Numbered from the stretch's first letter, positions 1,550-49,766 are shown. The stretch is 56,140 nt of DNA from a virus (IMGVR_UViG_2563366805_000004:1-56140); one strand, 5' to 3'. Translations and numbers: made by a program. The notes: generated from the sequence alone by a model not told the origin.

Positions 1550-2965
1550 TTATTCGGCGTCAGAATTGTTTTGGTGTTTGAGCTCGGCAAATTTGGCAGC
1601 CATCGTTGGGTTGCCGCGCGTGAGTCGCTTGACCGTCAGGTCTTCGGCTTTATCGTTGGCAAGCCGAAGATTGTTGGCGGACTTGTGCAGGGCTTCTTTG
1701 GTCTTTTCAAGGTCCTTGATGGCTTCGTCGATGCGCTTGACCGCTTCTTCAAACCCATCTGAAGCCAAACGCCAGTTGCGACCGAATGCGGTCTTGAAGT
1801 CATCGAGCTGGGTTTCAAATTGGGTGATGTCGATGTTCTGCGCCTTCACCAGCGCCAGCTCGGACTTGTATTGAAGTGACTTCATCGCTGCATTGCGTAG
1901 TAGCGTGATGATGGGGATGAAGAACTGAGGCCGAACGACATACATCTTCGGGTAGCGGTGAAACACATCAACGATCCCAGCGTTGTAAAGTTCACTGTCT
2001 GGCTCCAGCAGGGAAACCAGCACGGCGTATTCGCAACCTTTTTCGGTGCGGTCCTTGTCGAGCTCCTTGAAGAAGTCTTCGTTTTTCTTCTTGGTTGCTG
2101 TTTCGTCGCCTTCGTTCTTCATCTCGAACATGATCGAGACGATCTCGGTGCCTGCATCATCCATGTCCCGGAAGATGTAGTCGCCCTTGCTGCCGGTGCG
2201 AACGTCGTTGTCTTTTTCGAAGTAGGCCATTGGGAATGCGGTGGCTCGGAGACGGTTAAACTCAATCTCGCAATGCTGCTCCAGGGTTTCCCCAATCATC
2301 TTGGTCGACAGCCGTGCCTTCATGTCCCGCAGACGTACAATCTCACCATCGCGATCTTTAAGCTGTGTTTCGTATTTATCTTTGAGTGCAGTCTCGGCAA
2401 GTTGCTTTTCCAATGCTGCTCGCTCTAGTCCGTTCTTGAGTTCGTCACGCTCCTTCGTCACCACGCTGACCGCTTCGGTGAGCGCGAGCTTTTGTGTAAC
2501 TTCGCCCGCTGCAAGCTTGGCCTGCAGACGCTGAATCTCCGCATCCTTGGTGGCCTCGGCTTGCTGTAGCTCACTTAATCGCTTCGCCTCGGCCAGTTGA
2601 GCTTTAGTTTCAATCTCTTGCTTTGCTTTTTCCAGCGCGTTCCTCAGTGCATCGCGATCTTTTTCTACCGCGCTCAGCGCCTCACTGACAGCAAGCTTTT
2701 GCGCCACCTCTCCTGCATCCAGCCTAGCCTTTAATGCCTGGATTTCGGCATCTTTTTCAGAAGCAGCCTTCTGCAATTCGCTGGTAACCTTGGCTTGAGC
2801 CAGCTCGACCGCATTTTGCTTGTCCCTTTCGGCCAGCTCAAGGCGTTCATGTAACTGCTTCTCAAAGTCAGCATCGCGAACCTGTTTCAGAATGTCTGAG
2901 TAACCAGCTTCATCAATCTTGAAAGCCTTGCCGCAATGGGGGCAGATGATTTCATGCATAGTCAT
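1550..2965 (-). CDS. Zn-ribbon plus long coiled-coil protein, DUF2130-like
   Basis: 471-aa ORF with N-terminal CPHCGK zinc-ribbon motif, a long E/K/A/L-rich heptad region and a conserved C-terminal domain; start overlaps the upstream stop by 4 nt (ATGA); GAAGGA RBS. Confidence 0.6.
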
Positions 2966-4842
2966 TTTCCTTCTACCTTGGCCAAAATTTGCTGGAGCAT
3001 CTCTGGCACCGCCCCTGCGGATTTGAGTGTCGCCGTGCGGTATGCGAGTTGGTTCTTCGAGAGACTAATACCTGTGGCAATCTCGATTTCACTGCAAGCA
3101 GCTAGCCACTCAGGCCAGTTGGCTACGAGAAATGATTCCAGATGGTCTTCAAAAATGGCGACTGTGTCGCCTACGACAGCTTCCGGAAAATCTTCTTCAG
3201 CAATACCGAAGTATTTCAGAGCTGTCCGGTTTTCTCGGGCATTTTTTGCAAGTTCTTCATCGATCTTGTTTTGCTGTTTTCCTTTGGCTTTTGCTCGCGC
3301 CGCACATGCTCTGTCAGCATCGAAAAGCGCATAAACCGGGATACCGAGTGCGGACAGGATGGCATGGACAAGAGGAATCGACGTCTTGCCTCCGACTGGG
3401 ACAATGGAAATACCAGCGGCTTCAAGCGCACCATGAGATATTTTGTCGCCTATACCGTGGAACACCGATGACTCGGTGGTACCCTCCACAAGAAAAGCGC
3501 GATGGGCAAAGAGGGCTACAGCCAGTTGCTCTGAAACGATGCCATCTAACTGACGTTCGACAACATCACCATTTACTATCTGGTGCAGCCTGGTCTTCAC
3601 ATCATCAATGGAGGCAAAGTGGATAGTCACAGTCGGAGTCTCTCCAGATGATCGCGTCAATCTCCTGACATGATCAAAATGGCGGGCCTCAAGGAAATAA
3701 GGGCTGTGCGTTGCATAGGTTACTTGGATACACTTGTCGGGGTCTTCAACAAGTGAGCGGAGCACTTTTGCAAACGCCTGTGCCTGAATCGGGTGCTGAA
3801 AGAGCTCAGGTTCTTCAATTGCTAAACAGATGACTCCGTCGGCTGAAGCTGCTCCCGATTGTGCCAAGAGCTGGAGCGCCGAGATCAGAATAGTCCGCTG
3901 AAAACCATGCCCCTGTCGCTCTACCGCTGTTTCGGTTGTACCATCGAGCACGGATACTTCGAACGTGGTCTTGGGGGCTTTGAGCTCTACCTCTGCGGGA
4001 GAAACCGTGACCGCCCGACCGGGTGAGTATGAGCAAACAACCTCGTTAAGCTGCGTCGTCATCACCTTAAGCTGGGCTTGGAATTTCTCTTCGTAGACTT
4101 TCTGCTGCTTTGCTCTGGACTCCTCGACGATTGCCGCAATCTCCTGATCTGCCGCTGCACGATCAACGGAGCGTTCCAGGATGCGTCCGATGATGCTCGA
4201 TTTACCGTCAATGGACTCTTCGCTTGCACGAAGGTCTGCAGTCACCAGCACAAAATCGAAGAGGCCGCTCATCTTGCCGCCGCTGTTGAAACCAAAGAAG
4301 TTGGTTTGCAGCGATTCGGGGGCGTCTACGAGTAACTCTGTATGTGATGCCTCCCAGGTAGTCATTGCCTGGTCAATGGCTGTACCGGTAGTGGCTGTAG
4401 GAAGCTCCAGCTCTGGACGACTAGTTCTGAGATTTGTATAAAGCTCCCTCTTCGCCGCTACGCCATTTGCAGTTTTGATTACGTTGAACTCTGGGAATCC
4501 CTTTGCGTTTGCAGAGAGCACATCGGTGCCGTCAGCTGAACGGCGCTTCCACGCCGTGAATGTAGCTGCGCCCTCTGGAGTGTACTTACCAAGCGCCTCC
4601 CGATCCTTTTCGGTGAGATCTGCGAATGTGACTTGCACCTCGATGTCTTCGCTAGCTTCTCCAAAGGAGCAGTCTTTCTCTGTCAGCGAGCCGGGCTTGC
4701 CGTTGAAGAACCAATCGAGTGCATGTAGCACTGTCGACTTGCCAGCGCCGTTCGGCCCTATGAATGTCGTAACGGAGTCGAAGGGAATCGTGACGTCTTT
4801 GAGTGCCCGGAAGTTTTTGATGCGAACGGATTGAATCTTCAT
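2962..4842 (-). CDS. OLD-family ABC-ATPase / Toprim nuclease
   Basis: 626 aa; N-terminal [14 protein letters not shown]...[11 protein letters not shown] Walker A; C-terminal Toprim signatures FLVEGTTE and a DxD motif (ALFDAD). Confidence 0.8.
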
Positions 4843-4876
4843 TTCAGTTTTATTCCCTTATACCTGTTGTGATCTA

Positions 4877-5566
4877 TCAATGTTTGAGTTCTTCCAGTTC
4901 TATTTTCAACATTCGCAGTTTGGCGTTGATCTCTACCTTGCGGTTGAATTGTTTTTCTTTGGCAAGTCTGCTGGCTATTTTTTCAACCTCACGTTGCTTG
5001 GCTGCAACCAGTTCGACACGTGCGACCAAATCCGCGAGACTTTCTTGTAGGCGCGCGGGCGTGGAGATCAGGCTGTGAAGCAACTGCTCATACAAGCCGC
5101 CCAAGTCGAGTGCTAAGGGCATGGCGGCGCGCTCACAGTCACTCGGCAACCAGGCTGTTGCAAAGTAGTCACTCAAGACCCAACGGCTGGCGTCTGACTC
5201 ATTGGGGCGTTTGTACGCAGCGATCACCTTTGTTCGGCCATCAAAGCTCAGCTCGAAGATAATGGGAAACTGCACTGCGCCATCGATGCAACGCAAAACG
5301 TCCAGATTCAGCTCCGATGCCTTGAGCTGGATTGAGAAAATCTGAAGCTCTGGTACTCCCAGCCTGGCGGGCAGGTTGATCGTTTCCGGAGCCAACTTGT
5401 ATTGCCAGACGATCTGCTCCACCTGCTCGACGAACAAGTCCTTCAGCCTCGTATTGGCGCCGCTGTGTTCGTAGATCTTATTCTTTGGCAGGGTACGACC
5501 AAAGACAGCCTGCTTCGGATAGTTGATGAACGCGGTATTCGACTCAAATCGCGCAGACTGACTCAT
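4877..5566 (-). CDS. DUF4391-like protein
   Basis: 229-aa ORF, 4-nt overlap with helicase stop; family assignment is from recollection of this domain next to helicase/methyltransferase genes, not verified. Confidence 0.5.
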   Translation of the reverse strand: MSQSARFESNTAFINYPKQAVFGRTLPKNKIYEHSGANTRLKDLFVEQVEQIVWQYKLAPETINLPARLGVPELQIFSIQLKASELNLDVLRCIDGAVQFPIIFELSFDGRTKVIAAYKRPNESDASRWVLSDYFATAWLPSDCERAAMPLALDLGGLYEQLLHSLISTPARLQESLADLVARVELVAAKQREVEKIASRLAKEKQFNRKVEINAKLRMLKIELEELKH

Positions 5567-8500
5567 CCGGCCTCCTGAATCACGAGGAAGGTAATCAGTT
5601 CGAAGTCGTCCAGTCCGACGATAGTATTGACCAACGCGGTGGTCTTTCCGCTGCAGAAGAGGCTGTCCAGATCCTTATCTTCCTTCACCTCGATCATTGA
5701 GCGGATGGCCTTGCCAAGCAGGTCCGAATACATCTGCATCTTGCGGCCATCGGCCGTTTCCTTATTGAACAGGAGACAGGCATCTGTAATAGGCTGGGCT
5801 TGTCCCTTGCAGCAGGTGCGAACCAGATCCAGCAAACGTTTGACTTCGGTGTAATCGTGAATGACTTCCCCCTCGCGATTAATGTAGACGAGGTAATAAG
5901 GGTGCAGGCGGTTGTGCTGACTGACGTTGACGCTTGGATTCCGGTTGCGTAGCGTGAAGATTACACCCGGGCGTAGGCCCATCTCCGGCTTGGCAGGCAC
6001 TACGGCGTGCATCCCGCTTGGCACGTTGCTCATTTCGCCATTGGCCTTCACATAGTTGAGCAAGTCCATTCGGAAGTCATTGAGCCCGAGATCAGTAATC
6101 GACACTCCGGTTTTCAGGTCTTCCAGCTCAATCACTTCCTCTTGCAAACGTCGCAATTGCTCTTTGCGATAAGACACATCGTTGGCTTGGGCGCTCAGCA
6201 CATTGTCGTCACCGGTGGCAGTGACATCGGCAATCATCATTCGGCTTTCAACCCGTTCCTTCAGGTTGATGTATTCGTCGAGCGAGATGTCTGGCCAGTA
6301 GTTAACCAGTTGGATGCTGCTGTTGGGTGAGCCGATGCGATCCACACGGCCGAAGCGCTGGATGATGCGCACGGGATTCCAGTGGATGTCGTAGTTGATG
6401 AGGTAGTCGCAGTCCTGTAGGTTCTGGCCTTCAGAGATACAATCGGTGCCGATCAACACATCTATCTCTGCCTCCTCATTTGGCAGCACGATGGCTTTCT
6501 CCTTCGAGTGCGGCGAGAAGAGGGTGAGCAGTTCCTGGAAGTCATAGCTCTTCTTGAGCGTGCTCTTCGGTGCCCCTTTGCCGGTGACTTTTGCACTGTG
6601 CAAGGTCTGTGTAGCCAGCAATTCCGGAGCCAAATTGGCATACAGATAGTCAGCGGTGTCGGCGAAGGCGGTGAAGATCAGCACCTTCTTGTTGCCAGGA
6701 TTCAGCGGTGCTGCGATCTTTTCCAGAACCAGTGCTTTGAGATGCTGCAGTTTGGCATCATCGGCAGCCGTGATCTTGTTCATCGACGTCAGCAAAGCAT
6801 CAATGATTTCCAGATCGACCTTCAGCTCGTGCTCCCAGGAAGGCAAGTCCATATCGGCGAGGCTGATTTTGACCTTGCCACCGATCTCACTGTCGCCATT
6901 GCTTGGCAGGTCGTCGTCCGCGTCGAGGTTTTCTAACTGGTCGGTCAGGTCATTTATTCTGCTATCAATGCCACTGAGGCCGCCAGTCTCATTGAAAGTG
7001 CTGATCTTGGCCAGCGTATTAGTGTGGTTCGCGCGCAGGGACTTGAGCGTCAAGCGGAAAGACTCAATCGAGCTTTCCAGGCGCTTGAGCAGGTTGGTCG
7101 TCATCAATGCCTGCAAACTCTTTTCACGGTCGATTTGTTTAAGCTTGCCTTTCCCTGCAACCTGAGTGTCATACATCTCCTCGTACTTCTTGAGCCGACT
7201 GGGCAGAATGTAGCTGATCGGGGCATAAACGGCGAGCTTGAGCAAAGACAGCTGCTCGAAGATCTCGTTGAAGCTCATCACATCCGTTCGCTGCGTGAGC
7301 GGACAGTGGAACGACAAGGGTTTGCGGCGCTCGGGGAATTGGCCTATTTCCTTGGTGTCGTAGAAAGTCTGGATATGCTTGCGTGAGCGTGCGATGGTGA
7401 CGCTGTCGAGCAATTCGAAGAAGTCGAAGTCCAACGAGTCCAGGATGGCCCGCGCTGTGCGCTCTTCCGGTGGAAGCTTTGCCCATGCATTGAAGCTGGC
7501 CTGCGCACCACGGAAAATGTCCTCTACCGTCTTGCCGGTACGCAGCTTCTTGCTGAGGTTTTCGGAATCGCCTTCGTAGGCCAGTGCCAGTTGGTTGCGC
7601 AGGTCATTGAAGCGGTTGTTCACCGGGGTGGCCGAAAGCATCAGCACCTTGGTCTTCACGCCTTCCTTGATAACCTTGTTCATCAGCTTCTGGTAGCGGG
7701 TTTCCTTGTCCTTATAGGCGTCATTGTTGCGGAAGTTGTGTGACTCGTCGATGACGACGAGGTCGTAGTTGCCCCAGTTAATGCGATTCAGCGGTGTGCC
7801 AAATGACTCACCGCTCGTACGGCTGAGGTCGGTATGACAAAGTACGTCGTAGTTGAACCGGTCGCGAGCAAATATGTTGGTTTTGAGGTTACGGCTGTAG
7901 TTCAGCCAGTTGTCCGCCAGCTTCTTGGGGCATAACACCAGAACTGACTTGTTGCGCAGTTCGTAATACTTTATCACGGCCAGCGCGGTGAAAGTCTTGC
8001 CCAAGCCCACGCTGTCGGCCAAGATGCACCCGCTGTAGCTCTCAAGTTTGTTAATGATCCCGGTGGCAGCATCTTTCTGGTAATTGAAGAGTTTGTTCCA
8101 GATGAGCGTGTCTTGATAGCCTGTGCGGTCGTTCGGTAGGACATCCTCGTTGATGTCGTCCAGAAACTCATTGAAGATATTGTAGAGCATCAGGAAGTAG
8201 ATGCTCTCGGGCGAGTTTTCCTGGTAGACGGATGCAATGTGGTCGCAGATCTGCTCCGTTACATCCTCCAGCTTCTCAGGATCTTGCCAGATCTGGTTAA
8301 ACAGACTGAGGTAGGTCGCCGTAAACGTCGACTCGTCCATTTTGTTGACGAGGTTTGAGACAGCGTTGCCTTGCTGGTAGCCAAGATCGACGGCGGTAAA
8401 TCCGTGCAGTGGCATGTAGGCAGTCTCTGCGGCGGCGGCCTGAACACAAGCAAACTGCTGCATCGGAGCCTTGCTGCGATTGGACTTGAATGTTGCCTTG

Positions 8501-8844
8501 CGCCGCATCCAGTCCGCGCACTCTTTTGCAATTGCGCGCTGGGTCAGTTTGTTACGCAGCTGAATTTCGAACTCACTCCCGTACAAGCTCCGTTCGCGGT
8601 CAGCCTTCGGTATGTGAAATTCTCTGCGTTCCTTGCGAATCTTGTCGGTAACCTCGTTAGCGGTAAACGTCGGTGAGGTAAAGATGAATTGCAGCTCGTC
8701 GATTTTTTCCAGCTCTGCTTTGAGCGCTTCGAACGCGTACATCGAAAAGCAGGAGGCGGCGATCTTCAGGCGAGCACTAGGTTTGAGCGTCTGCTTTAGG
8801 TCGTCTCCGAGCAGGTGGTTGATATTGTCGATCAGTTCCATCAA
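5563..8844 (-). CDS. SNF2-family (SF2) helicase/translocase with ~250-aa N-terminal extension
   Basis: 1093 aa; motif I LADSVGLGKTFTA, motif II VVIDESHNFRN, motif III LMLSATPVNN, motif VI QRFGRVDRIGS; no recognisable nuclease motif seen by eye. Confidence 0.85.
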   Translation of the reverse strand: MMELIDNINHLLGDDLKQTLKPSARLKIAASCFSMYAFEALKAELEKIDELQFIFTSPTFTANEVTDKIRKERREFHIPKADRERSLYGSEFEIQLRNKLTQRAIAKECADWMRRKATFKSNRSKAPMQQFACVQAAAAETAYMPLHGFTAVDLGYQQGNAVSNLVNKMDESTFTATYLSLFNQIWQDPEKLEDVTEQICDHIASVYQENSPESIYFLMLYNIFNEFLDDINEDVLPNDRTGYQDTLIWNKLFNYQKDAATGIINKLESYSGCILADSVGLGKTFTALAVIKYYELRNKSVLVLCPKKLADNWLNYSRNLKTNIFARDRFNYDVLCHTDLSRTSGESFGTPLNRINWGNYDLVVIDESHNFRNNDAYKDKETRYQKLMNKVIKEGVKTKVLMLSATPVNNRFNDLRNQLALAYEGDSENLSKKLRTGKTVEDIFRGAQASFNAWAKLPPEERTARAILDSLDFDFFELLDSVTIARSRKHIQTFYDTKEIGQFPERRKPLSFHCPLTQRTDVMSFNEIFEQLSLLKLAVYAPISYILPSRLKKYEEMYDTQVAGKGKLKQIDREKSLQALMTTNLLKRLESSIESFRLTLKSLRANHTNTLAKISTFNETGGLSGIDSRINDLTDQLENLDADDDLPSNGDSEIGGKVKISLADMDLPSWEHELKVDLEIIDALLTSMNKITAADDAKLQHLKALVLEKIAAPLNPGNKKVLIFTAFADTADYLYANLAPELLATQTLHSAKVTGKGAPKSTLKKSYDFQELLTLFSPHSKEKAIVLPNEEAEIDVLIGTDCISEGQNLQDCDYLINYDIHWNPVRIIQRFGRVDRIGSPNSSIQLVNYWPDISLDEYINLKERVESRMMIADVTATGDDNVLSAQANDVSYRKEQLRRLQEEVIELEDLKTGVSITDLGLNDFRMDLLNYVKANGEMSNVPSGMHAVVPAKPEMGLRPGVIFTLRNRNPSVNVSQHNRLHPYYLVYINREGEVIHDYTEVKRLLDLVRTCCKGQAQPITDACLLFNKETADGRKMQMYSDLLGKAIRSMIEVKEDKDLDSLFCSGKTTALVNTIVGLDDFELITFLVIQEAG

Positions 8845-9746
8845 GAGTCAGCCTTTGTAGCGGCGCTATAGCCTGGTGCCAGTAAGGCGTTTTTCACGCC
8901 GTAAATCGCGAGATGATCTTTGAGCCATAAACGGTACTCCGGTCCATTTAGGCAATGATCGGGTGAGCAGTCAACCCGCCAGCGCTGCAACATATAGCCC
9001 ACTACAGCCGCGCGAACGCGCATCCTAATCGAGCCATCGGCCATCCCGTAGTCCATCTTGATGATCTCGGGGCGTTCAATGCGCGGGTGCGGCACGAAAT
9101 CCAACTCGACGATGCGCGTCCACTGGATATCATTATCCGGTCGTTCGTTGGCCTGTGGAACCTCTTCAAGCAATGTTGGCGCTTCGATGCGGGTGACGAC
9201 GAAATCCCGAAACTCTCCACTTTTGCGATCAAAGGCCCGGGCGTGCCAGCGCAGGCCGGTATCTACCAAAGCAAAGGGCACAATGACCCGTTCGGACTTG
9301 CCGCTGCTCATCGAGTGGTAGCGGATGGCGACGGGGCGCTTGGAGTGGATGGCTCGACAAATCACGGCCAACACATCCATCTTGGGTATGCTCAGGACTG
9401 TGGGGGATTCACAGGGTAGCAACGCCTGCATTGGGCCATTCACGCCATCGCCAAAGCCCAGAGCCAGCGCCGACAGAACACGCTGCGATGCGTGCTCGAA
9501 TAACGGAGAGAACGCCTGCCCGATACGATAGATCTTGTCGCTACCATCAAAGGTGATGTTATTCGGAGCGATTTCCCGGTACAAAGCCAAATCGCGAGTC
9601 GCTCCTGCTGGAGCAACGCCAAAGCGCTCAATCAAATCTGGGCGACCGATCTCACCGAAGAAGTAAAGCCGAAAATCGATGTAGGCCAGCCGTTCGCGCT
9701 GGACCTGGCTCAAGTCGTCAAGCCGCTTACAAGGGGGACTAGGCAT
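8841..9746 (-). CDS. WYL-domain transcriptional regulator, BrxR/CapW-like
   Basis: 301 aa; N-terminal wHTH signature ERLAYIDFRLYFFGEIGRPDLIERFGVAPAGATRDLALYREIAP; stop overlaps helicase start (ATGA); first gene of the co-directional operon. Confidence 0.8.
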   Translation of the reverse strand: MPSPPCKRLDDLSQVQRERLAYIDFRLYFFGEIGRPDLIERFGVAPAGATRDLALYREIAPNNITFDGSDKIYRIGQAFSPLFEHASQRVLSALALGFGDGVNGPMQALLPCESPTVLSIPKMDVLAVICRAIHSKRPVAIRYHSMSSGKSERVIVPFALVDTGLRWHARAFDRKSGEFRDFVVTRIEAPTLLEEVPQANERPDNDIQWTRIVELDFVPHPRIERPEIIKMDYGMADGSIRMRVRAAVVGYMLQRWRVDCSPDHCLNGPEYRLWLKDHLAIYGVKNALLAPGYSAATKADS

Positions 9747-10250: not shown

Positions 10251-11037
10251 GCAGCAAATTCGTCAACTGACAAACTACGAACCAGTGATCGGCATCATGG
10301 GTAAAACCGGTGTTGGGAAGAGCAGTCTGTGCAATGCCCTGTTTGCTGGAGAGGTATCGCCGGTCAGCGATGTGGCGGCCTGTACTCGTGAGCCACTGCG
10401 CTTTCGACTGCAAGTTGGCGACCGCCATATGACGCTGGTGGACCTGCCCGGCGTAGGCGAAAGTGGCGCTCGCGATATCGAGTATGCTGCGCTGTATCGC
10501 GAACAACTCCCCCGGCTCGACCTGGTGCTGTGGTTGATCAAGGCTGATGACCGGGCGCTGGCAGTAGATGAACACTTTTATCATCAGGTGATTGGGGAGG
10601 CATACCGGCATAAGGTGCTGTTTGTTATCAGCCAGTCGGATAAGGCCGAACCCACCAGCGGTGGGAGACCATTGTCCATCACGCAGAAGCAGAACATCAG
10701 CCGCAAAATCTGTCTGCTGCATGAGCTGTTCCAGCCCGTACATCCAGTATGTGCCGTGTCGGTCCGTCTTCAGTGGGGGCTGCGGGTGATGGCCGAGCGA
10801 ATGATTAAGTGTCTGCCACGTGAGGCCACCAGCCCGGTGGTGTCGCAACTCCAGCCTTCCTTTCGCACGACGTTAGTCCGGGAGCAGGCTCGTAGCGATT
10901 TTGGTGAAACCATCGGTGCTGTACTCGATAGCATCAGTGCCTTTCCCCTGATACCCGCCCCGGTGCGGGCCGTCATTCAGGCCGTGCGCACCACTGTGGT
11001 GTCAGTGGCCCGCGCCGTCTGGGATTTCTTCTTCTAA
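10174..11037 (+). CDS. yfjP: YfjP/YeeP/YkfA-family GTPase
   Basis: 287 aa; P-loop GIMGKTGVGKSSLCNAL and DLPG motif; length and order match the CP4-57 backbone. Confidence 0.85.
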   Translation: MNNSEGLKPFQQSLDGLPQWVSERVMQQIRQLTNYEPVIGIMGKTGVGKSSLCNALFAGEVSPVSDVAACTREPLRFRLQVGDRHMTLVDLPGVGESGARDIEYAALYREQLPRLDLVLWLIKADDRALAVDEHFYHQVIGEAYRHKVLFVISQSDKAEPTSGGRPLSITQKQNISRKICLLHELFQPVHPVCAVSVRLQWGLRVMAERMIKCLPREATSPVVSQLQPSFRTTLVREQARSDFGETIGAVLDSISAFPLIPAPVRAVIQAVRTTVVSVARAVWDFFF

Positions 11038-11128
11038 GTATTTAACCCATTCCTGTTATTTCCCTGACCCTGTCGCCGATGCGACGGGGATCCCTTTTAT
11101 TTGTTTTCCCGTTATGAGGAGTCTGCTT

Positions 11129-11950
11129 ATGACCCGTCTGGCTTCGCGCTTTGGCGCAGCAAATTTTATCCGTCGCGACCGCCCTTTAACCCGTGAGGAG
11201 CTGTTTCGCGTGGTGCCCAGTGTGTTCAGCGAGGACAAACATGAGTCCCGCAGTGAGCGTTATACCTATATACCCACCATATCCCTGCTGGGCAGCCTAC
11301 AGCGAGAAGGCTTCCAGCCATTCTTTGCCTGTCAGACCCGGGTACGTGACCCGGGTCGTCGGGAACACACAAAGCACATGCTGCGCCTGCGTCGGGAGGG
11401 ACAGATTACCGGTAAGCAGGTGCCGGAAATCATTTTGCTGAATTCACATGATGGCACCAGTTCGTACCAGATGTTGCCGGGACTATTTCGTGCGGTTTGT
11501 CAGAACGGGCTCGTCTGTGGTGAGTCATTTGGCGAGGTGCGGGTGCCGCACAAGGGGGACGTGGTAAGTCAAGTGATTGAAGGCGCGTATGAAGTGCTGG
11601 GCATTTTTGACCGTGTGGAGGAGAAGCGGGATGCGATGCAGTCGTTGCTGTTGCCGCCACCGGCGCAGCAGGCACTGGCAAAAGCCGCGCTGACGTACCG
11701 CTTTGGTGAAGACCACCAGCCGGTGACTGAATCGCAGATCCTCTCCCCGCGCCGCTGGCAGGATGAGAGTAACGACCTGTGGACCACGTATCAGCGTATT
11801 CAGGAGAACCTGATTAAGGGCGGGCTCAGTGGCCGTAATGCCAAAGGGGGACGGTCACATACCCGGGCCGTTCGCGGTATAGACGGGGACGTGAAACTTA
11901 ACCGGGCACTGTGGGTGATGGCGGAAGCGATGCTCACGCAACTGCGGTGA
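11129..11950 (+). CDS. yfjQ: YfjQ-like protein (DUF932 family)
   Basis: Start moved to MTRLASRFGAA (GAGGAG RBS 8 nt upstream); sequence matches recollected YfjQ/YeeQ N-terminus. Confidence 0.75.
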   Translation: MTRLASRFGAANFIRRDRPLTREELFRVVPSVFSEDKHESRSERYTYIPTISLLGSLQREGFQPFFACQTRVRDPGRREHTKHMLRLRREGQITGKQVPEIILLNSHDGTSSYQMLPGLFRAVCQNGLVCGESFGEVRVPHKGDVVSQVIEGAYEVLGIFDRVEEKRDAMQSLLLPPPAQQALAKAALTYRFGEDHQPVTESQILSPRRWQDESNDLWTTYQRIQENLIKGGLSGRNAKGGRSHTRAVRGIDGDVKLNRALWVMAEAMLTQLR

Positions 11951-14699: not shown

Positions 14700-16322
14700 T
14701 CATTCTTCCTCATGATAATCGCTCTTGCTCCATAATGGCTTGATAGCGTGATAGGCGCCACTGAATGGACATTTAGAATTTTTGTTCCGCTGGATTCGGA
14801 GCAAATCATCAATATCCTTTTCGATGATTTTTTTTACCTGTGAATGGTATCGCTGAAGTGAGACATCACTAATGGACTTTTCAAAGCGGAGGCTGGTGTC
14901 TTGATTCACAAGATCGTAAACACCGTCTTTTATTTTCATTCTGTTGCCTTCAGGGATGCCCATTTTCAGGTCATAGCATTTCAACCCGGCCAGACGGACT
15001 TCGACACCGACGCGCTCAGTACGTGTTTTCTTGTGGCTAATCAGAAGCACTTTATTGTTTTCGTACCATTTTTCAAAGGATTGCACTATATCTCTGTTCT
15101 TTTGTTGGTTGCCTTGAGAAGCGCTGTAAAAATGATAACTGTTCGAACTATAGACGTGACGTTCCCGGTCGGAGATTTGCGGAATGGTACCTTTCTGCCT
15201 GCGCATCTGGTCGGCAGGCTGCTCATAAATACGTAGTAAGCAGTCTGCGAGAGAGTCTGAAGCATCATGCAACGTATTGGTCTGGATGAGTTTCAGGAGG
15301 GTATCTCGCTTGATTGAAATCTGGCAATAATCGCTCTCCCAAGCCACTGTCGGTTGCTGCTCTTCCCCTTCTGAAGAGGTGGTGATATCAGGCGTAACAG
15401 TGGTGAATTTCCAGACAAATGGTGTTGATTGCGAATATTTGAAATACATCTGAAGCTCAGCCAGCCACTGTATGATCTCCGAAGCATAAATGCCCACATA
15501 CTGGTCGAACAGATATTCGGCGTACTGAGGTGCGCACTGTTCAACAATCCTTTCAATGAACTCAACACGCCCTTCATCGTTAATTAACTTTATTATTTTA
15601 TGGAATACGCCGTTCTTCCGCCTTTCTCCTATCAGAAAATTTGTGTGAACTTTTTCAAATTCGGACAGCCAGTCGGGAGTAACAATGCCGGCATCATGCA
15701 AAGCGGTAATTAAGTTGTAAATTGCATCAGCAAGTATCGGAAGTGAATCTATTTTGTGGAAATCGTTCAATCGGGAAAGTAGCTCCTGGCTGCATGAGTG
15801 CGCAATGGAAAGGTCCTGATGGCAGTAGCCTTTTCGTGCCTGAGGCGGGATTGGCGAACAATGTGTCGGGCCCTCGGCCAAGATGGCAAACATATCATCG
15901 TGAATAAACTGCTCCAGAAGTTTGCTTTGTTCCGTAAAGCGGAACCCCTGCTCTGTTGGCTGCCGGTTCATCTCTCTCCAGGTCTTCAGACTGACCTTGC
16001 CATCATCAAAACCGGCATAGAGTTGATGCATGAAAATGAGTGCATCCATGAGGCTGTCCTGCTTTTGTTCCTTAAAATGAAACTCATATGTGTTCTGAGA
16101 GTAGATTTTGTTGATTTTATTGCTCTGGGCTCGCAGCTTTGTCAGTACCTTGTGCTGCTCATCAAACCACTTGCTGAATTCAGTATCTTCATTCAGTTGC
16201 CGGGCCTTAAGGATGAGGAGAAGTATCTGTTCGCTGATTGCATCATAAATGTTCGGGAAAGGGTTGGCGGCACCAGAAAGAAACGTGCAGAACAGAGACT
16301 TGTTATGTTCAGAATGGTGCAT
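14700..16322 (-). CDS. Hypothetical 540-aa protein, AT-rich (positional equivalent of CP4-57 yfjW)
   Basis: Long uninterrupted ORF in a visibly AT-rich segment with AT-rich promoter-like region upstream (16323-16660); no motif recognised by eye. Confidence 0.6.
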   Translation of the reverse strand: MHHSEHNKSLFCTFLSGAANPFPNIYDAISEQILLLILKARQLNEDTEFSKWFDEQHKVLTKLRAQSNKINKIYSQNTYEFHFKEQKQDSLMDALIFMHQLYAGFDDGKVSLKTWREMNRQPTEQGFRFTEQSKLLEQFIHDDMFAILAEGPTHCSPIPPQARKGYCHQDLSIAHSCSQELLSRLNDFHKIDSLPILADAIYNLITALHDAGIVTPDWLSEFEKVHTNFLIGERRKNGVFHKIIKLINDEGRVEFIERIVEQCAPQYAEYLFDQYVGIYASEIIQWLAELQMYFKYSQSTPFVWKFTTVTPDITTSSEGEEQQPTVAWESDYCQISIKRDTLLKLIQTNTLHDASDSLADCLLRIYEQPADQMRRQKGTIPQISDRERHVYSSNSYHFYSASQGNQQKNRDIVQSFEKWYENNKVLLISHKKTRTERVGVEVRLAGLKCYDLKMGIPEGNRMKIKDGVYDLVNQDTSLRFEKSISDVSLQRYHSQVKKIIEKDIDDLLRIQRNKNSKCPFSGAYHAIKPLWSKSDYHEEE

Positions 16323-17728: not shown

Positions 17729-18187
17729 ATGACAACAGCGGCACAAAACAATCTTGCATCTGCTAACGAGTCCGAATTTGAACTGACCGTAACGCAGGTA
17801 CCTGACGAACAGCGTCTCGATTTCTGGCCGCAGCACTTTGGCGCTATCCCGCAGTGGATAACGCTGGAACCCCATATTTTCGCCTGGATGGACCGCTTCT
17901 GTGATGAGTACTGCGGGGGTATCTGGTCCTTTTACACGCTCAGCAATGGCGGCGCGTTTATGGCCCCAGATGCTGAGAGTGGCGATAAATGGCACCTGTG
18001 CAACAGCATGAACGGCAATGGTGCGCAAATGAGCGCGGAAGCCGCAGGTATCGCTGTCTGCCTGATTGAATACAGCCATCACGCCTGTCGCACCGAATGT
18101 GATGCCATGACTGAGCACTATTACCGCCTGCGGGATTACGCCCTGCAGCACCCTGAATCCAGCGCCATTCTGAGCATTATTGATTGA
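17729..18187 (+). CDS. yfjX: Antirestriction protein (YfjX/KlcA/ArdB-like)
   Basis: 152 aa; conserved position and length in CP4-type islands. Confidence 0.8.
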   Translation: MTTAAQNNLASANESEFELTVTQVPDEQRLDFWPQHFGAIPQWITLEPHIFAWMDRFCDEYCGGIWSFYTLSNGGAFMAPDAESGDKWHLCNSMNGNGAQMSAEAAGIAVCLIEYSHHACRTECDAMTEHYYRLRDYALQHPESSAILSIID

Positions 18188-18678
18188 GGATACTCATGAT
18201 GGAACAGTCACTTACCCCACTGGCTCCGGTACTCCCACTGAGCGCTCAACGCACTGTGCAACATGCCCTGGCCCTGCTTGACCGCCACCTGCGCGAAACA
18301 GGCGTGGCATTCACTTCCACTCAGGCTGCCCGTGACTGGCTGAAACTGAAAATGGCGGGACTGGAGCGCGAAGAGTTTATGGTGCTGTACCTGAACCAGC
18401 AGAACCGGTTGATTGCCCACGAAACCCTATTTGTCGGTTCCATTAGCAGTACCGAGGTACATCCCCGTGAGGTGGTCAAACGCGCCCTGTACTTCAATGC
18501 GGCAGCAGTGATATTGGCTCATAACCATCCCTCCGGCGACACCTCGCCCAGCAAGGCAGATAAGACCATCACGCAGCGTCTGGTGCAGGCGCTCCAGCTC
18601 GTTGATATCCGTGTGCCTGACCACCTTATCGTTGGTGGCACGCAGATATTGTCGTTCGCTGAACACGGTCTGCTTTGA
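18184..18678 (+). CDS. yfjY: RadC-like JAB/MPN domain protein
   Basis: JAMM-like motif AHNHPSGDTSPSKAD; ATGA overlap with preceding gene. Confidence 0.85.
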   Translation: MRILMMEQSLTPLAPVLPLSAQRTVQHALALLDRHLRETGVAFTSTQAARDWLKLKMAGLEREEFMVLYLNQQNRLIAHETLFVGSISSTEVHPREVVKRALYFNAAAVILAHNHPSGDTSPSKADKTITQRLVQALQLVDIRVPDHLIVGGTQILSFAEHGLL

Positions 18679-18686
18679 GGTCTGCC

Positions 18687-18908
18687 ATGAAAATTATCAG
18701 TAAACGCCGGGCGATGACGATTTACCGTCAGCATCCGGCTTCCCGCATTTTTCGCTACTGCACCGGCAGATACCAGTGGCACGGCAGTGTCTGTCATTAC
18801 ACCGGTCTTGTAGTTCCTGACATTCCCGGTGTGCTGGCGATATACGCCGAACGCCGCCAGGACCGCAACGGGCCCTATGCCTGTCTGATGAGTATCACCC
18901 TGAACTGA
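18687..18908 (+). CDS. DUF987 protein (YeeT/YkfH/YpjJ-like)
   Basis: Start at MKIISKRRAMTIYRQ; conserved position between RadC-like and antitoxin genes. Confidence 0.6.
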   Translation: MKIISKRRAMTIYRQHPASRIFRYCTGRYQWHGSVCHYTGLVVPDIPGVLAIYAERRQDRNGPYACLMSITLN

Positions 18909-18925
18909 CAATAAAGGAAAAGCTG

Positions 18926-19246
18926 ATGAGGAGTAACGCTACATGGGGACTGCAACGTGATATCACACCGCGTCTGGGAGCCCGTCTGGTGCAGGAGGGC
19001 AACCGGCTGCACTATCTGGCTGACCGGGCAAGTATCACAGGTAAGTTTAGTGATGCCGAATGCCTGAAGTTGGATGCCGCATTTCCGCATTTTATCAGTC
19101 AGATGGAATCGATGCTGACCACTGGTGAAATGAACTCTCGCCATGCCCACTGCGCCATCCTGTATCACAACGGCTTTACCTGCGAAGCCGATACTCTTGG
19201 TAGTTGCGGCTACGTATACATCGCCATTTATTCCACTCAACGCTAA
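18926..19246 (+). CDS. yfjZ: Type IV TA antitoxin CbeA/YeeU/YfjZ family
   Basis: Near-identical to recollected YeeU (…[20 protein letters not shown]…[19 protein letters not shown]…). Confidence 0.85.
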
Positions 19247-19266
19247 CAAATTTCACGAGAGCAAAC

Positions 19267-19596
19267 ATGAAAACTCTACCTGCTACAATTTCGCGGGCGG
19301 CGAAGCCCTGTCTGACGCCCGTGGCTGCCTGGCAAATGTTACTGACACGTCTGCTAGAACAGCACTATGGCCTGACACTGAACGACACGCCGTTCAGTGA
19401 TGAAACTGTTATTAAGGAACATATTGATGCAGGGATCACCCTGGCCGATGCAGTCAACTTTCTGGTGGATAAGTACGAACTAGTTCGTATCGACCGGAAG
19501 GGATTTTCGTGGCAAGAGCAGACCCCGTATCTTTCCGTAGTGGATATTCTGCGAGCAAGGCGCTCTACCGGATTGCTAAAAGCCAAGGTGAAATAA
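19267..19596 (+). CDS. ypjF: Type IV TA toxin CbtA/YeeV/YpjF family
   Basis: Start at [12 protein letters not shown]; [14 protein letters not shown] and DAVNFLV motifs match CbtA family. Confidence 0.8.
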
Positions 19597-19928
19597 ACGC
19601 TTAAATACAGAGCAGACTAAAGGAAAGCAACATGCTAATCTCACAGACGAAGAAGCTCCTGCTGTAACCTCCCCTCCCCTGCAAAAAAACCTGACATTTT
19701 CTTTTAGGACCAACAATAGGACCAAAATAAAATTTGAATTGAAAGTTAAAAATTATAAAACAACAAGTTACACAACCAATTCAGACTCCGCCAGCCCAAT
19801 CATGATTGGACGGTGTAAGGACAACACCAACAAAAACAGGAAGTTAGCAGTCTCAGCAGGACACCGACCAGACGGTGAGGAGACAAAAAAGGATACGCAA
19901 AGGAGCCGCGGCTCTCGAGTGACACAAA

Positions 19929-19956
19929 AGCCCGCTTATGCGGGCTTTTTGTTTTT
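19929..19956 (+). terminator. Rho-independent terminator
   Basis: agcccgc ttat gcgggct hairpin followed by tttttgttttt. Confidence 0.6.
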
Positions 19957-20032
19957 CCCTTAAGTTCCTAGCCGCTTATCTATAACTATGGAAAAATGTT
20001 AACCCTGACTGTATGTTAACAAAGGGATGTAT

Positions 20033-21241
20033 ATGTCGGTTTTTCATAACTGGCTGCTTGATATCGCAAGCGGGAATTACTTTATCTACATCAAACGCCT
20101 TTCTGCAAACGACACAGGCGCAACAGGTGGCCATCAGGTCGGACTTTATATCCCCTCAAATATCGTTGAAAAGCTTTTTCCATCTATCAATCATACTCGC
20201 GAACTGAACCCTTCAGTCTTCCTTACTGCGCATGTATCATCCCATGATTGCCCTGATACCCAAGCACGCGCAATTTATTACAACAACCGTTATTTTGGTA
20301 AGACCCGAAACGAAAAAAGAATTACGCGCTGGGGGAGAGGAAGTCCATTACAGAACCCTGAAAATACAGGAGCCCTCACAATTCTTGCTTTCAGGTTAAA
20401 CGAACAGAACACTGACTGTTCCGAGGTAGATATATGGGTCTGCGTCAATCCCGATGAAGAGGATATCATCGAGTCTGCTATTGGCGAAATCATACCTGGA
20501 ACCCTAATTTCCGGCCCTGCCGGACAAATTTTGGGCGGATTGTCTCTTCAGCAAACTCCAGTAAATCATAAATATGTTATTCCTGAAGACTGGAAGAAGC
20601 GTTTTCCTTCTGGAAACGAAATTATTCAATATGCTGCTGGCCATTATGCTAAAAACTCCAAGGATCCAGATGAGCAACTGATTGACCGTCGGCGTGTCGA
20701 GTATGATATTTTTCTACTCGTCGAGGAATTACATGTTCTTGATATTATTAAGAAAGGATTCGATTCTGTAGATGAGTTTATTGCATTAGCCAACTCTGTC
20801 AGTAATCGACGTAAATCAAGGGCAGGCAAATCACTTGAACTTCACCTAGAGAAGCTTTTTATCGAGCACGGACTACGGCATTTCTCCACTCAGGCAGTTA
20901 CTGAAGGTAATAAAAAACCAGATTTCCTGTTTCCTTCAGCAGAGGCATATCATAACGTTGAATTTCCTGTAGAAAACTTACGTATGCTGGCAGTAAAGAC
21001 CACCTGCAAAGATCGCTGGCGTCAGATACTGAATGAAGCAGATAAAATCCATCAGGTACATTTATTTACACTGCAAGAAGGTGTTTCTTCAGCACAATAC
21101 CGAGAAATGAAAGATGCGGGTGTCAGACTCGTTGTACCATCAACTTTACATAAAAAATACCCAGAAGCAGTTAGAGAAGAATTAATAACGCTCGGAGCAT
21201 TCATTACTGAGCTGATAGAGCTTTACGCTGAACTATCATAG
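20033..21241 (+). CDS. ecoRIIR: EcoRII-like Type IIE restriction endonuclease
   Basis: Near full-length match to recollected EcoRII (MSVFHN…RLSANDTG…GGHQVGLYIPS…VENLRMLAVKTTCKDRWRQILNEADKIHQVHLFTLQEG). Confidence 0.9.
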   Translation: MSVFHNWLLDIASGNYFIYIKRLSANDTGATGGHQVGLYIPSNIVEKLFPSINHTRELNPSVFLTAHVSSHDCPDTQARAIYYNNRYFGKTRNEKRITRWGRGSPLQNPENTGALTILAFRLNEQNTDCSEVDIWVCVNPDEEDIIESAIGEIIPGTLISGPAGQILGGLSLQQTPVNHKYVIPEDWKKRFPSGNEIIQYAAGHYAKNSKDPDEQLIDRRRVEYDIFLLVEELHVLDIIKKGFDSVDEFIALANSVSNRRKSRAGKSLELHLEKLFIEHGLRHFSTQAVTEGNKKPDFLFPSAEAYHNVEFPVENLRMLAVKTTCKDRWRQILNEADKIHQVHLFTLQEGVSSAQYREMKDAGVRLVVPSTLHKKYPEAVREELITLGAFITELIELYAELS

Positions 21242-21245
21242 GCTG

Positions 21246-21270
21246 ACTCCCGGCTTAAAAGGCCGGGAGA
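21246..21270. other. Perfect 8-bp-stem hairpin between convergent R and M genes
   Basis: ctcccggc ttaaaag gccgggag; no flanking T-run, so terminator function is uncertain. Confidence 0.4.
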
Positions 21271-21275
21271 TGTTC

Positions 21276-22709
21276 TTAAGGCTGCCCAGTCTTACCAGCA
21301 TCAGCAGAAACAGCTTTGAGGATATAGGGTTCCAGAAGTCTGGCAACAGCTTCAAATACTGGCACCACAACTGAGTTACCGAACTGCCGATATGACTGAG
21401 TATCTGAAACCGGAATACGGAATGGTTTCCCTCCAGGTTTTTCAAATCCCATAAGGCGTGCGCACTCTCGGGGAGTCAGCCTGCGTGGTCGACGAGCCTG
21501 ATTACTCTCATTCATAAAGTCAGCCTCTCCCGTTGCCATATCCCAACCACGATCAATAAGAATTTCTGATCCGTCTTTGTGATATCTGGCAGAAAGTGTG
21601 CGTGCAATGCTTTCCTTATTCTCAGGATTGACCAACCCAAAGCCAAAACCATTCCCCTTGGCTGCATGCTTTTTGGCGTAGTTATAAAGGTACTCCCATA
21701 GTTTTGGCGTAAGTATATATTTACTGTCGACTACAGGCTCCAGCAATTCACCAAATGATGGGCGGTGTTCCGGATAAAAACGACTGATATCACGCAAGGT
21801 AAACCCCTTGTGAATATTCAGATCTCGTCTAAATCCGACCAGAACAATACGTTCACGATGCTGAGGCAAAAAATGCTTCCCATCGATAATCTTTGGATCG
21901 TTTTTTCCCATTTCTGCAGCATCGGCAACTTCGTAGCCCAGCTCGTCAAGGGTCTCCATAATGACTTTGAAAGTTTTACCCTTATCATGGCTCTTCAGAT
22001 TTTTGACATTTTCCAGCACAAAAATTGCCGGTTTTTTTGCTCGTATAATACGTGCCACGTCAAAAAAAAGTGTTCCTTGTGCTTCACATTCAAAACCATG
22101 CGCACGACCAAGTGAGTTTTTCTTACTAACACCAGCAAGGCTAAATGGCTGGCACGGGAACCCCGCAAGAAGCACATCATGATCCGGCACATGCTCATCA
22201 ATATATGCATAAGCATCCGTTTCCAATACATCGGTTTTATCACTCAGCGTGACTTCCCGAATATCGAGATTGAATTTATGCACCTGTTCATCGTTAAACC
22301 AGTTGGCCTTGTATGTACGCACAGCATCTTTATTCCATTCACTGGTAAAAACACACTGGCCTCCAATGGCCTCAAAACCTTTCCGTATCCCTCCAATTCC
22401 AGCAAATAAGTCAATGAAGCGGAAAGCATATTCCGGATGGTTTGCAGGTGGTTCTGGTAGCATCTTACGCAGAAGAGACTCTTCTACTGAAGTCAACGAT
22501 TTTGGTAAACACTTGCCATTAATCCAGCGGTTAATGGTTTCACGGCTCCACTCATTTTTTCCGACTTTTCTCAGTAATTCAGCCACATACTTCTGATCAT
22601 AGATTTCCAGCACTTTCTCGATAAGCTTTTTATCATTTTCCTGTCGCAGCTTTTCTTCCGCCTCGGCTTCCTTCAGCAGATGCTGTGCCAACACTTCAAA
22701 TTCAGACAT
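21276..22709 (-). CDS. ecoRIIM: M.EcoRII/Dcm-type C5-cytosine DNA methyltransferase
   Basis: Start moved to MSEFEVLAQ (GGAGG RBS); motifs FAGIGG, PCQPFS, ENV; near-identical to recollected M.EcoRII and Dcm. Confidence 0.9.
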
Positions 22710-23070
22710 AATTCCTCCAAGGGGTCTAATGGGTGAAACTTTATCACTCATTCAACCCAGAAGGAAATGTTTTATCTGGATATTTAAACAGTGACTACAA
22801 CGTAATCTAGCACTGGTGATGCTTTGTTAGGCATAGAGAATCATTCTATATACGACTAATGACAGAAAAACAGCAGACAAGTAGTTTGTTCATAAATTAA
22901 CGCATACTATGTGTCTACGGTTTTCGAGACCGGTCCAATCATCAAACGAAACATAAAATTAGCTCACATTATGAGGAAAAGTATCTTTTTTGTACTATGT
23001 AAATTCAAAGGCTTAGCCTCATTTCTCCGATGGTTTTCTCAACACTACTGGTTGTGAGCCCTTGCAATGA

Positions 23071-23889
<819 letters not shown>

Positions 23890-23911
23890 GTCTTTAAGTG
23901 ATAAGCATAAA

Positions 23912-23956
23912 CCGCAGCACGTCATGCATACGTCGTGTCTGCGGTTTTTCTTTTTT
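23912..23956. terminator. Bidirectional terminator between GIY-YIG gene and tfa
   Basis: ccgcagcacg…cgtgtctgcgg hairpin followed by tttttctttttt on the plus strand. Confidence 0.6.
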
Positions 23957-23958
23957 GC

Positions 23959-24543
23959 TTACACGGTGTCTGGTTCTTCTGGCCACTCAATATCCGGTGC
24001 AGTTGATGTATCAACACGGTTCAGCAACACCCGATACTTTTTCCAGGCTTCCAGCAATGAGGTTTCTTCCTCCGTTGCGATTTCCAGATCTACAGCATCC
24101 TGAAGTGGCGCAATATGCTCACTGGCTACCTGCATCAGGCTGTTTTTTGTTTCTTCTGCCTCCCGGATCCGGAACAGTTTTTCTGCTTCCGTATCCTTCA
24201 CCCAGGCTGTGCCGTTCCACTTCTGATATTCCCCTCCCGGCGACAACCAGGTAACATTTTCCGGTAACGGACCGAGTTCAGAAATAAATAACGCGTCGCC
24301 GGAAGCCACGTCATAAACCGTTTTACCCCGATGGTCTTCAACGAGATGCCACGATGCCTCATCACTGTTGAAAACAGCCACGAAGCCTGCCGGAATATCT
24401 GGTGGTGCAATATCGGTACTGTTTGCTGGCAGACCTGTATGAGGCGGAATATATGCGTCACCTTCACCAATAAATTCATTAGTTCCGGCCAGCAGATTAT
24501 AAATTTTTATGGTCCGTGCTTGTTCACTCATTCTGAATGCCAT
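23959..24543 (-). CDS. tfa: Tail fiber assembly protein Tfa
   Basis: 194 aa; conserved C-terminus [19 protein letters not shown] typical of lambda Tfa family; directly downstream of stf. Confidence 0.85.
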
Positions 24544-48713: not shown

Positions 48714-49766
48714 TTATTTCCCCACCAGCTCGTTTATCTCTTTCACTGTCTGGTTAAACCGCTCTGACTCAAGCTCAACACCTAAGGCCCGACGCCCCAG
48801 CGCCATTGCTGCTTTTATTGTGGAACCGGATCCCATAAAAAAATCAGCAACCAGATCACCAGGTCGACTACTGGCATTGATTATTTGCCTGAGCATATCC
48901 ACTGGTTTCTCACACGGATGTTTACCCGGGTAGAACTGAACGGGTTTATGCATCCAGACATCGGTATAAGGCACGGAGACTGATACGGAGAAATAGCGCC
49001 GGAGAGATTTAAACTCATCCAGCAATTCAGAATATTTGCGATTCAGTGAATCATAAGATGCCACCAGCTGGTGGTGTGGTTGTTCCAGTTGTTGTTCCTG
49101 AAACTTCTCTGCCGCTATACGGGAAAACAGTGCCTGTAACTTCCGATAGTCAGCCTCATTCGGCAACTGCCACTGACTGGCACCAAACCAGTGGGAAACC
49201 ATATTTTTCTTACCTGTGGCTTCGGCAATTTGTTTTGCCGTTATACCCAGTTCGGCACGAGCATCCCTGAAATACGATATCAGCGGTGCCATTATGTGCT
49301 GTTTGAGTTCCCTTTCTTTTGCCGCATAGCCGTCACTTTTGCCGCGATATGGCCCCTGGTAATGTTCAGCAAACAGAACGCGCTCTGTGGCAGGAAAATA
49401 TGCGCGCAGACTTTCTTTATTACACCCATTCCAACGTCCGGACGGCTTCGCCCAGATGATATGGTTAAGCACGTTGAAACGTTCACGCATCATGATCTCA
49501 ATATCAGATGCCAGGCGATGCCCACAGAACAGGTAAAGGCTTCCGGCAGGTTTCAACACCCGCCAGAACTGGGCCAGACAGTGGTCCAGCCACTTAAGGT
49601 AATCTTCGTCCCCTTTCCACTGATTGTCCCAACCGTTGGGTTTCACCTTGAAGTAAGGCGGATCGGTAACAATCAGGTCAATGGAATCATCAGGCAGGGA
49701 CTGAATAAAATGCAGGCAATCAGCGTTGATTAAATCAACACTGTTTATTTTTACAGTATTTTTCAT
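48714..49766 (-). CDS. Phage DNA N6/N4 methyltransferase
   Basis: 350 aa; TDPPYF motif near N-terminus and FMGSGST near C-terminus. Confidence 0.8.

Follow-up and report, generated by a model that had tools for sequence, protein, structure and literature searches.

An EcoRII-family restriction-modification pair carried with a type IV nuclease gene at the ssrA-proximal end of Escherichia coli prophages

The viral DNA analysed here, which we refer to as the window, is 56,140 nucleotides in length, and positions 20027–22751 are occupied by two long convergent open reading frames. The first encodes an EcoRII-family type IIE restriction endonuclease (R; 20033–21241, plus strand) and the second a C5-cytosine methyltransferase of the M.EcoRII lineage (M; 21276–22709, minus strand). 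A spacer of 34 bp separates the stop codons of the two genes and contains only a hairpin with a 10-bp stem (21247–21269), which folding and a terminator scan mark as a possible two-way terminator; a related hairpin occupies the gap of the plasmid EcoRII system. The original prediction, made from the sequence of the window, placed a convergent endonuclease and C5-methyltransferase at 20033–22709, and ORF calls, Pfam searches and alignment to Protein Data Bank entry 1NA6 show both the coordinates and the description to be correct.

Two start codons are available to R, an ATG at 20033, which gives a protein of 402 residues, and an alternative ATG at 20027, which gives 404. The former is the better placed, with an AAGGG ribosome site 6 nt ahead of it, and it is also the start given in RefSeq. 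The protein matches the Pfam families EcoRII-N over residues 18–165 (3.9e-61) and EcoRII-C over residues 229–393 (2.4e-71), and residues 1–403 align to the crystal structure of EcoRII, 1NA6, with E = 3e-243. The two-domain build of an N-terminal effector-binding domain and a C-terminal PD-(D/E)XK catalytic domain is therefore present in R.

The functional residues of R.EcoRII have been named by Golovenko et al. 2009 (PMC2770665). They comprise the active-site residues Glu271, Asp299, Lys324 and Glu337; the residues Asn260, Lys328, Asp329 and Arg330, through which EcoRII-C contacts the bases in recognising CC:GG; and the EcoRII-N contacts Asn28, His36, Gln37, Tyr85, Arg94, Glu96, Arg98, Tyr41, Arg81, Lys92, Thr93, Thr100 and Arg101. 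All 21 of these published catalytic and DNA-contact residues (four active-site, four EcoRII-C and 13 EcoRII-N) are identical in the window protein, and none of the 53 substitutions that distinguish R from the plasmid R.EcoRII falls at any of them. No inactivating change in R, one of the results that the original prediction had named as telling against it, was found: the reading frames are intact, every functional residue is retained and the dN/dS ratio is low (see below). Moreover, R and M are both intact in all eight of the prophage-type copies examined. The conservation of these residues suggests that R would show type IIE behaviour and CCWGG specificity.

Translation of M is assigned to the ATG at 22709, ahead of which lies a GGAGG sequence, and a longer reading frame from 22751 also exists. 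From 22709 the protein has 477 residues, a length equal to that of M.EcoRII. It matches the Pfam families DNA_methylase (4.7e-78) and, at its N-terminus, DNA_meth_N (7.1e-27), and it contains the methyltransferase motifs I (FAGIGG, at 102), IV (PCQ, at 185) and VI (ENV, at 233). M is 90.6% identical to the plasmid M.EcoRII, as against 64.0% to the Dcm protein of strain K-12, and in view of the latter figure we group it with M.EcoRII and not with dcm. By homology, M is predicted to methylate the inner cytosine of CCWGG.

The sequences flanking the two coding regions were also considered. Upstream of M, homology with the plasmid EcoRII system continues as far as 22791–22792, and the segment 22710–22792 (minus strand) is presumed on this basis to hold the M promoter and a site for auto-repression; M.EcoRII is reported to repress its own gene (PMC12707154). 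Upstream of R, an att-proximal arm that travels with the restriction-modification module (19796–20026, plus strand) contains a strong terminator of the intrinsic type, followed by about 70 bp leading up to R. The terminator, at 19926–19949, has a folding energy of −22.3 kcal/mol (z = −5.3) and was also detected by the terminator scan. The promoter of R presumably lies within the following 70 bp or so, although a scan for sigma-70 promoters was no richer than shuffled sequence (9 versus 8.4) and no promoter is claimed.

In dcm–vsr loci, vsr overlaps the methylase gene at its 3' end, an arrangement that is absent at M. A tblastn search of the whole window with the K-12 Vsr protein gave a best E of 0.87 and no match near the 3' end of M, with a positive control that scored 2e-107, so that the original prediction was right in stating that M is without a vsr. 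This absence is not unusual, since neither of two plasmid EcoRII loci inspected has an annotated vsr beside M. A neighbouring gene of the GIY-YIG family was considered as a stand-in for Vsr and rejected, because it is PD-T4-3/CMoRE, a characterised type IV nuclease specific for hydroxymethylcytosine (PMC12923530).

This third gene (23116–23889, plus strand) encodes a GIY-YIG type IV restriction endonuclease of 257 residues. It matches the PADLOC model for PD-T4-3 (PDLC04031) over residues 1–256 of 256 with E = 7.6e-140, and it aligns with E = 5e-171 to the crystallised E. coli O157:H7 protein of entry 9U75, from which it differs by few substitutions and to which it is near-identical. The full-length match to the model covers both the GIY-YIG nuclease and the C-terminal modification-sensing domain that define the family. 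CMoRE has been reported to degrade the 5-hydroxymethylcytosine (5hmC) and glucosylated 5-hydroxymethylcytosine (5ghmC) DNA of T-even phages, and neither to bind nor to cut unmodified or 5-methylcytosine (5mC) DNA (PMC12923530); its indifference to 5mC makes it compatible with CCWGG methylation. The linked gene at 23116–23889 had been overlooked in the original prediction, as had an integrative island that abuts the cassette on its other side and is described below.

Together, R, M and CMoRE form a block of 4.15 kb that is found on different prophage backbones with end points that are identical across contexts. Pairwise comparison places the whole block at 19788–23947 (loci L003, L004 and L015), the restriction-modification sub-module alone at 19788–22932 (AST205, locus L014), the CMoRE sub-module alone from 22902 or 22915 to 23947 (O157 strains and DX6, loci L008–L010), and the plasmid EcoRII homology at 19965–22792 (loci L006 and L007), the left limit of this homology, to the left of R, being at 19965–20019. 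The seam between the two sub-modules at 22902–22932 parts the plasmid-homologous sequence upstream of M from some 200 bp that accompany CMoRE when it occurs alone. With this seam lying between them, it is unlikely that M and CMoRE are co-regulated from a shared divergent spacer.

The seams are associated with a repeat of about 40 nt in which a hairpin is followed by a T-run, of the form CCGCAGCACG..CGTGNCTGCGGTTT. An intact, terminator-like copy at 23909–23947 (plus strand; −20.3 kcal/mol, z = −4.1), detected by folding and by an exact pattern match at 23926–23947, forms the right edge of the block, and a degenerate copy (GCATAC..GTG.CT.CGGTTT) found by pattern search lies at the seam between the restriction-modification and CMoRE sub-modules (22902–22923, plus strand). 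The pattern search returned two matches where none was expected. In other phages, a copy of the repeat is situated just to the left of the restriction-modification module, where it is fused to an ssrA-like 3' end. We infer that these repeats are terminator-like boundary elements and att remnants, which would provide short homologies for the exchange of modules.

The left edge of the shared block is defined by a degenerate remnant of the 3' end of ssrA, CCGCCAGC (19788–19795, plus strand), and homology with every other context begins at 19788–19796. Scans of the window for tRNA and tmRNA genes returned nothing, the only trace of ssrA being this 8-nt remnant. In strain G749, the intact 3' end of ssrA (..CCCGCCAGCTCCACCA) abuts the downstream sequence seen in the window. 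The window remnant lies at the junction between the prophage arm and the right end of a CP4-57-like integrative island (17729–19596, plus strand; identified by Pfam and the annotation of locus L001), which is outside the restriction-modification block and carries genes for antirestriction, RadC, DUF987, the CbeA antitoxin and the CbtA toxin. The order in the window is thus one in which the island lies between ssrA and the prophage and abuts the restriction-modification cassette on its left. To the right of the block, the first gene of the lambdoid prophage backbone is that for tail fibre assembly (23959–24543, minus strand; Pfam Caudo_TAP and the RefSeq annotation of near-identical loci). Genes for the tail fibre, lom and J come next, and the sequence to the right of the block includes complete tail and head regions of lambdoid type.

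Comparison with other genomes allowed us to define the element that carries the pair. In G749, R, M, CMoRE and then the tail genes come immediately after ssrA, with 99.8% identity to the window from 19788 on. The integrase lies some 44 kb further, and the element ends about 46 kb from ssrA in an exact 25-nt repeat of that gene's 3' end. The layout is the same in ST131 strain 4993 and in strain AR_0081, the island being absent between ssrA and R in all three of these strains, and the direct junction of ssrA and R without the island is found in 129 genomes. The block is also present, at 98–99% identity, in a circular record of 43.7 kb, where it is positioned between the tail-fibre region and DinI/integrase. 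The record represents the entire genome of another type of phage, one that has e14/SfV-like genes and a contractile tail. A further copy lies at the end of a prophage that adjoins pao genes. The description of the pair as prophage cargo in the original prediction is borne out by the att-bounded lambdoid prophage at ssrA in G749 and others, and by the circular phage record. The pair has the character of accessory, moron-type cargo: it is found inside the att-bounded G749 element, and in related prophage ends CMoRE occurs without the restriction-modification genes or these occur without CMoRE.

The far end of the prophage and the far att site are outside the window sequence. Among the sequenced phages of INPHARED, there was no DNA match to the pair, and the protein matches were only distant, at less than 40% identity, and included Burkholderia phage KL3. 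The prophage assignment rests, therefore, on the comparisons with prophages and with the circular record.

The original prediction also held that the pair is near-identical to EcoRII. Comparison with the reference pair from plasmid pACN001-A (locus L006) confirms the family and not the near-identity. The proteins can be aligned without gaps with identities of 351/404 (86.9%) for R and 432/477 (90.6%) for M, and the DNA identity is 79–82% for both genes, or about 80%. The dN values are 0.079 for R and 0.056 for M with a dS of about 1.65 in each case, giving dN/dS ratios of 0.048 and 0.034, respectively. Protein identities of 87–91%, a DNA identity of about 80% and a dS of around 1.65 point to an old, separate lineage. 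On these sequence comparisons, we conclude that the prophage pair is an old sister lineage of plasmid EcoRII, maintained under strong purifying selection.

This lineage is common. Among 5426 complete E. coli genomes, 262 carry the R allele, taken at a DNA identity of at least 99%, and 263 of its 267 places are chromosomal. The stretch 19600–23950, which contains R, M and CMoRE, is at least 80% covered in 244 genomes; CMoRE itself is present in 838, of which these 244 hold the whole stretch. The carriers of the prophage lineage, about 5% of complete genomes, include ST131, ST95 and a probiotic strain, and strain 0H26 is 99.9–100% identical to the window at the pair locus. The exact R protein is found in at least 1000 contigs under the name "type II restriction endonuclease", so that the sequence is already known and annotated. 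A literature search returned no paper on this prophage allele, and in a paper on the ST131 methylome EcoRII is named solely with reference to Dcm.

We propose that R and M form a working type IIE restriction-modification system of the EcoRII family, which an ssrA-integrating lambdoid prophage carries as accessory cargo near its att site, at the end where the tail-fibre genes lie; we put the probability of this reading at about 0.8. The CCWGG specificity, the activity in the lysogen and the role in defence are the predicted elements of the proposal. By homology with M.EcoRII, M would methylate the inner cytosine of CCWGG. The N-terminal effector domain would keep R inactive until additional unmethylated CCWGG sites are bound, whereupon the activated enzyme would cut before the first C of CCWGG. 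The Dcm methylase of the E. coli host methylates CCWGG as well. A lysogen would then be doubly protected, by M and by Dcm, and the pair could not enforce its own maintenance. Its useful activity would be the cutting of incoming phage or plasmid DNA that is without CCWGG methylation, for example DNA that originates in dcm-minus donors, or phage DNA that is under-methylated, and restriction of such DNA is the likely function of the pair. As most E. coli DNA is already methylated by Dcm, the pool of targets is a narrow one.

CMoRE would act alongside R by cutting hydroxymethylcytosine and glucosyl-hydroxymethylcytosine DNA while ignoring C and 5mC. The 4.15-kb block would thus attack two states of cytosine and spare only 5mC at CCWGG. 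The block as a whole, like either sub-module on its own, has been exchanged between different prophages. More tentatively, the two enzymes may have been co-selected as a 'cytosine-state filter', in which the EcoRII-like enzyme destroys DNA with unmodified C at CCWGG and CMoRE destroys hmC and ghmC DNA, so that only Dcm-type 5mC DNA passes, and which passes between unrelated temperate phages, either complete or as its separate sub-modules, through recombination at the shared ~40-nt hairpin and att-remnant junctions. This is a possibility to which we attach well below even odds. If it is true, the system would persist in Dcm+ hosts, where it is not required for self-protection and cannot enforce its own maintenance, by virtue of a genuine advantage against DNA that arrives from dcm-minus donors or against phage DNA that is under-methylated. 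The prophage shows no avoidance of CCWGG (73 sites observed versus 71 expected in 23951–56140), and the block contains three sites where five are expected.

It had also been suggested that the pair could act as an addiction module, that is, that it serves mainly to stabilise the prophage by post-segregational killing. The plasmid EcoRII system does show post-segregational killing (PMC3874152), and the placement of the pair right at the prophage end and the strong purifying selection on R and M fit such a role. However, the solitary Dcm methylase, which has the same specificity, is reported to attenuate the killing of the host after loss of EcoRII (PMC3874152, PMC3424554), and a dcm-like match is present in 5367 of the 5426 genomes. 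In each of the 60 carrier chromosomes listed, including that of strain 0H26, there is a second place that matches M, which we take to be dcm. The presence of this second dcm-like gene in the examined carriers makes an addiction role unlikely, as it would be workable only in rare dcm-minus hosts, and the suggestion is weakened accordingly.

A little less probable still is that R is silent or inactive, the locus being effectively an orphan methylase that shields the phage genome from EcoRII-type systems in new hosts. CCWGG methylation would indeed be protective, given the occurrence of plasmid EcoRII-type methylase genes (of ~82% identity) in some 260 E. coli records. Nevertheless, R is intact in all the copies examined and has kept every functional residue, with a dN/dS of 0.048 over a deep divergence, and M alone would be redundant because the Dcm protein of the host supplies equal protection. 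Finally, ownership of the pair by the adjacent CP4-57-like island and not by the prophage is very improbable: R in the window is only ~430 bp downstream of the island gene cbtA and the island bears other defence-like genes, but ssrA and R are joined without the island in the 129 genomes noted above, the junction of island and R is rare, being covered by only seven of the matches listed to 19600–23950, and the block is present in the circular phage record.

Overall, we conclude that the pair is real, intact and common, and that it is probably ordinary defence cargo. The family is well known, and prophages are its less familiar carrier. It is a modest finding that EcoRII, known from textbooks as a plasmid system, has a sister lineage on E. 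coli prophages that is both old and well conserved. The coexistence of the pair with the isospecific Dcm offers a natural case in which to ask what keeps a restriction-modification system in place once Dcm has made its methylase redundant and neutralised addiction, and the link to CMoRE is a tidy example of stacked defences against different states of cytosine. In practical terms, lysogens should restrict DNA that comes from dcm-minus cloning strains.

The product of the block's third gene is the PD-T4-3/CMoRE protein of entries 9U75 and 9U7U, and the main text of the paper that describes that protein makes no mention of EcoRII, a prophage or an operon (PMC12923530). The likeness of R and M to plasmid EcoRII extends to the gene order and the convergent layout, the hairpin-containing gap of 33–34 bp from stop to stop, the equal protein lengths without insertions or deletions, the two-domain type IIE endonuclease and the methylase with a DNA_meth_N domain, and upstream homology continues for ~60 bp ahead of R and ~80 bp ahead of M. 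Besides the sequence divergence given above, the window lineage differs in that it rides on chromosomal prophages, not plasmids, and is linked to CMoRE. With the chromosomal dcm–vsr locus of E. coli, the pair has in common the methylase family and, as expected, the CCWGG specificity, but M is 64% identical to Dcm, is without an overlapping vsr, is paired with a restriction gene and has a mobile location. A CCWGG-type restriction-modification module on a temperate phage has a precedent in Burkholderia phage KL3, which carries EcoRII-C, Vsr and methylase genes (PMC3091744). The KL3 endonuclease aligns only to the C-terminal half of R (residues 171–397, ~39% identity), and its module includes vsr and has co-oriented genes, whereas the E. 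coli block, which is without vsr, encodes the full enzyme with both N- and C-terminal domains.

The restriction–modification (R–M) pair, comprising the EcoRII-family endonuclease gene and its convergent C5-methyltransferase gene, forms a single 4.15-kb block with a PD-T4-3/CMoRE gene (23116–23889, + strand), which is divergent from the methyltransferase gene. The product of this last gene is of a type already characterised, a GIY-YIG type IV nuclease specific for hmC and ghmC. The contiguous R–M–CMoRE stretch was found in 244 genomes; the endonuclease allele, defined by at least 99% DNA identity and counted in 5426 complete E. coli genomes, has 262 carriers, and CMoRE has 838.

The composition of the block varies at the end of the prophage. 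In AST205, a diguanylate cyclase gene (10499–11830 of that locus) lies beside the R–M pair in the place of CMoRE, in the same prophage-end slot, and in O157 and DX6 the slot adjoining CMoRE is occupied by an AraC-type regulator or an S1 peptidase. We conclude that the tail-fibre/att end is a variable cargo site. In several prophages, the R–M and CMoRE sub-modules are flanked by a hairpin repeat, terminator-like and about 40 nt long, CCGCAGCACG..CGTGNCTGCGGTTT, with copies at 22902–22923 and 23909–23947 in the window, L015:6715–6775 and L003:32180–32265 (both comparison loci); in some prophages, an ssrA-like 3′ end is fused to it. Modules may be exchanged between prophages by recombination at this repeat, which would then act as a seam.

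The whole block is also present in NZ_CP081794.1 (L003) and NZ_CP081704.1, 43.7-kb circular records that were deposited as 'plasmids' and are both complete temperate phage genomes. The probable source of both records is phage DNA, either excised or episomal, that was captured during assembly.

Elsewhere in the prophage, an Rfam match to the IS009 small-RNA model (24002–24200, − strand; 229 bits versus a gathering score of 117) falls within the tail fibre assembly gene. The late region encodes a solitary N6/N4 DNA methylase (48714–49766, − strand; Pfam N6_N4_Mtase, 1.1e-42) adjoining the lysis genes. Between the Q antiterminator (− strand) and these methylase and lysis genes, a low-GC patch (33–35% versus about 52%) holds an overlapping pair of genes of 308 and 182 aa (50385–51846, + strand), which matched nothing in Pfam or PADLOC, is found also in G749 and is a candidate uncharacterised accessory gene pair.

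In the CP4-57-like island, the separate integrative element to the left, a low-GC stretch (40–46%) contains a 540-aa ORF (14700–16322, − strand) with no match in Pfam or PADLOC, annotated as 'hypothetical' in strain 0H26. The island also carries a series of defence-like genes on the − strand (1550–9746), encoding a DUF2130 protein (1550–2965), a DUF4391 protein (4877–5566), a WYL-domain regulator (8841–9746) and two proteins resembling known systems in PADLOC: an OLD/Gabija-like AAA-TOPRIM ATPase (2962–4842; Old, 7.5e-59; AriA, 6e-46) and an SNF2-type helicase (5563–8844; 'HKD+Snf2', 4.4e-128).
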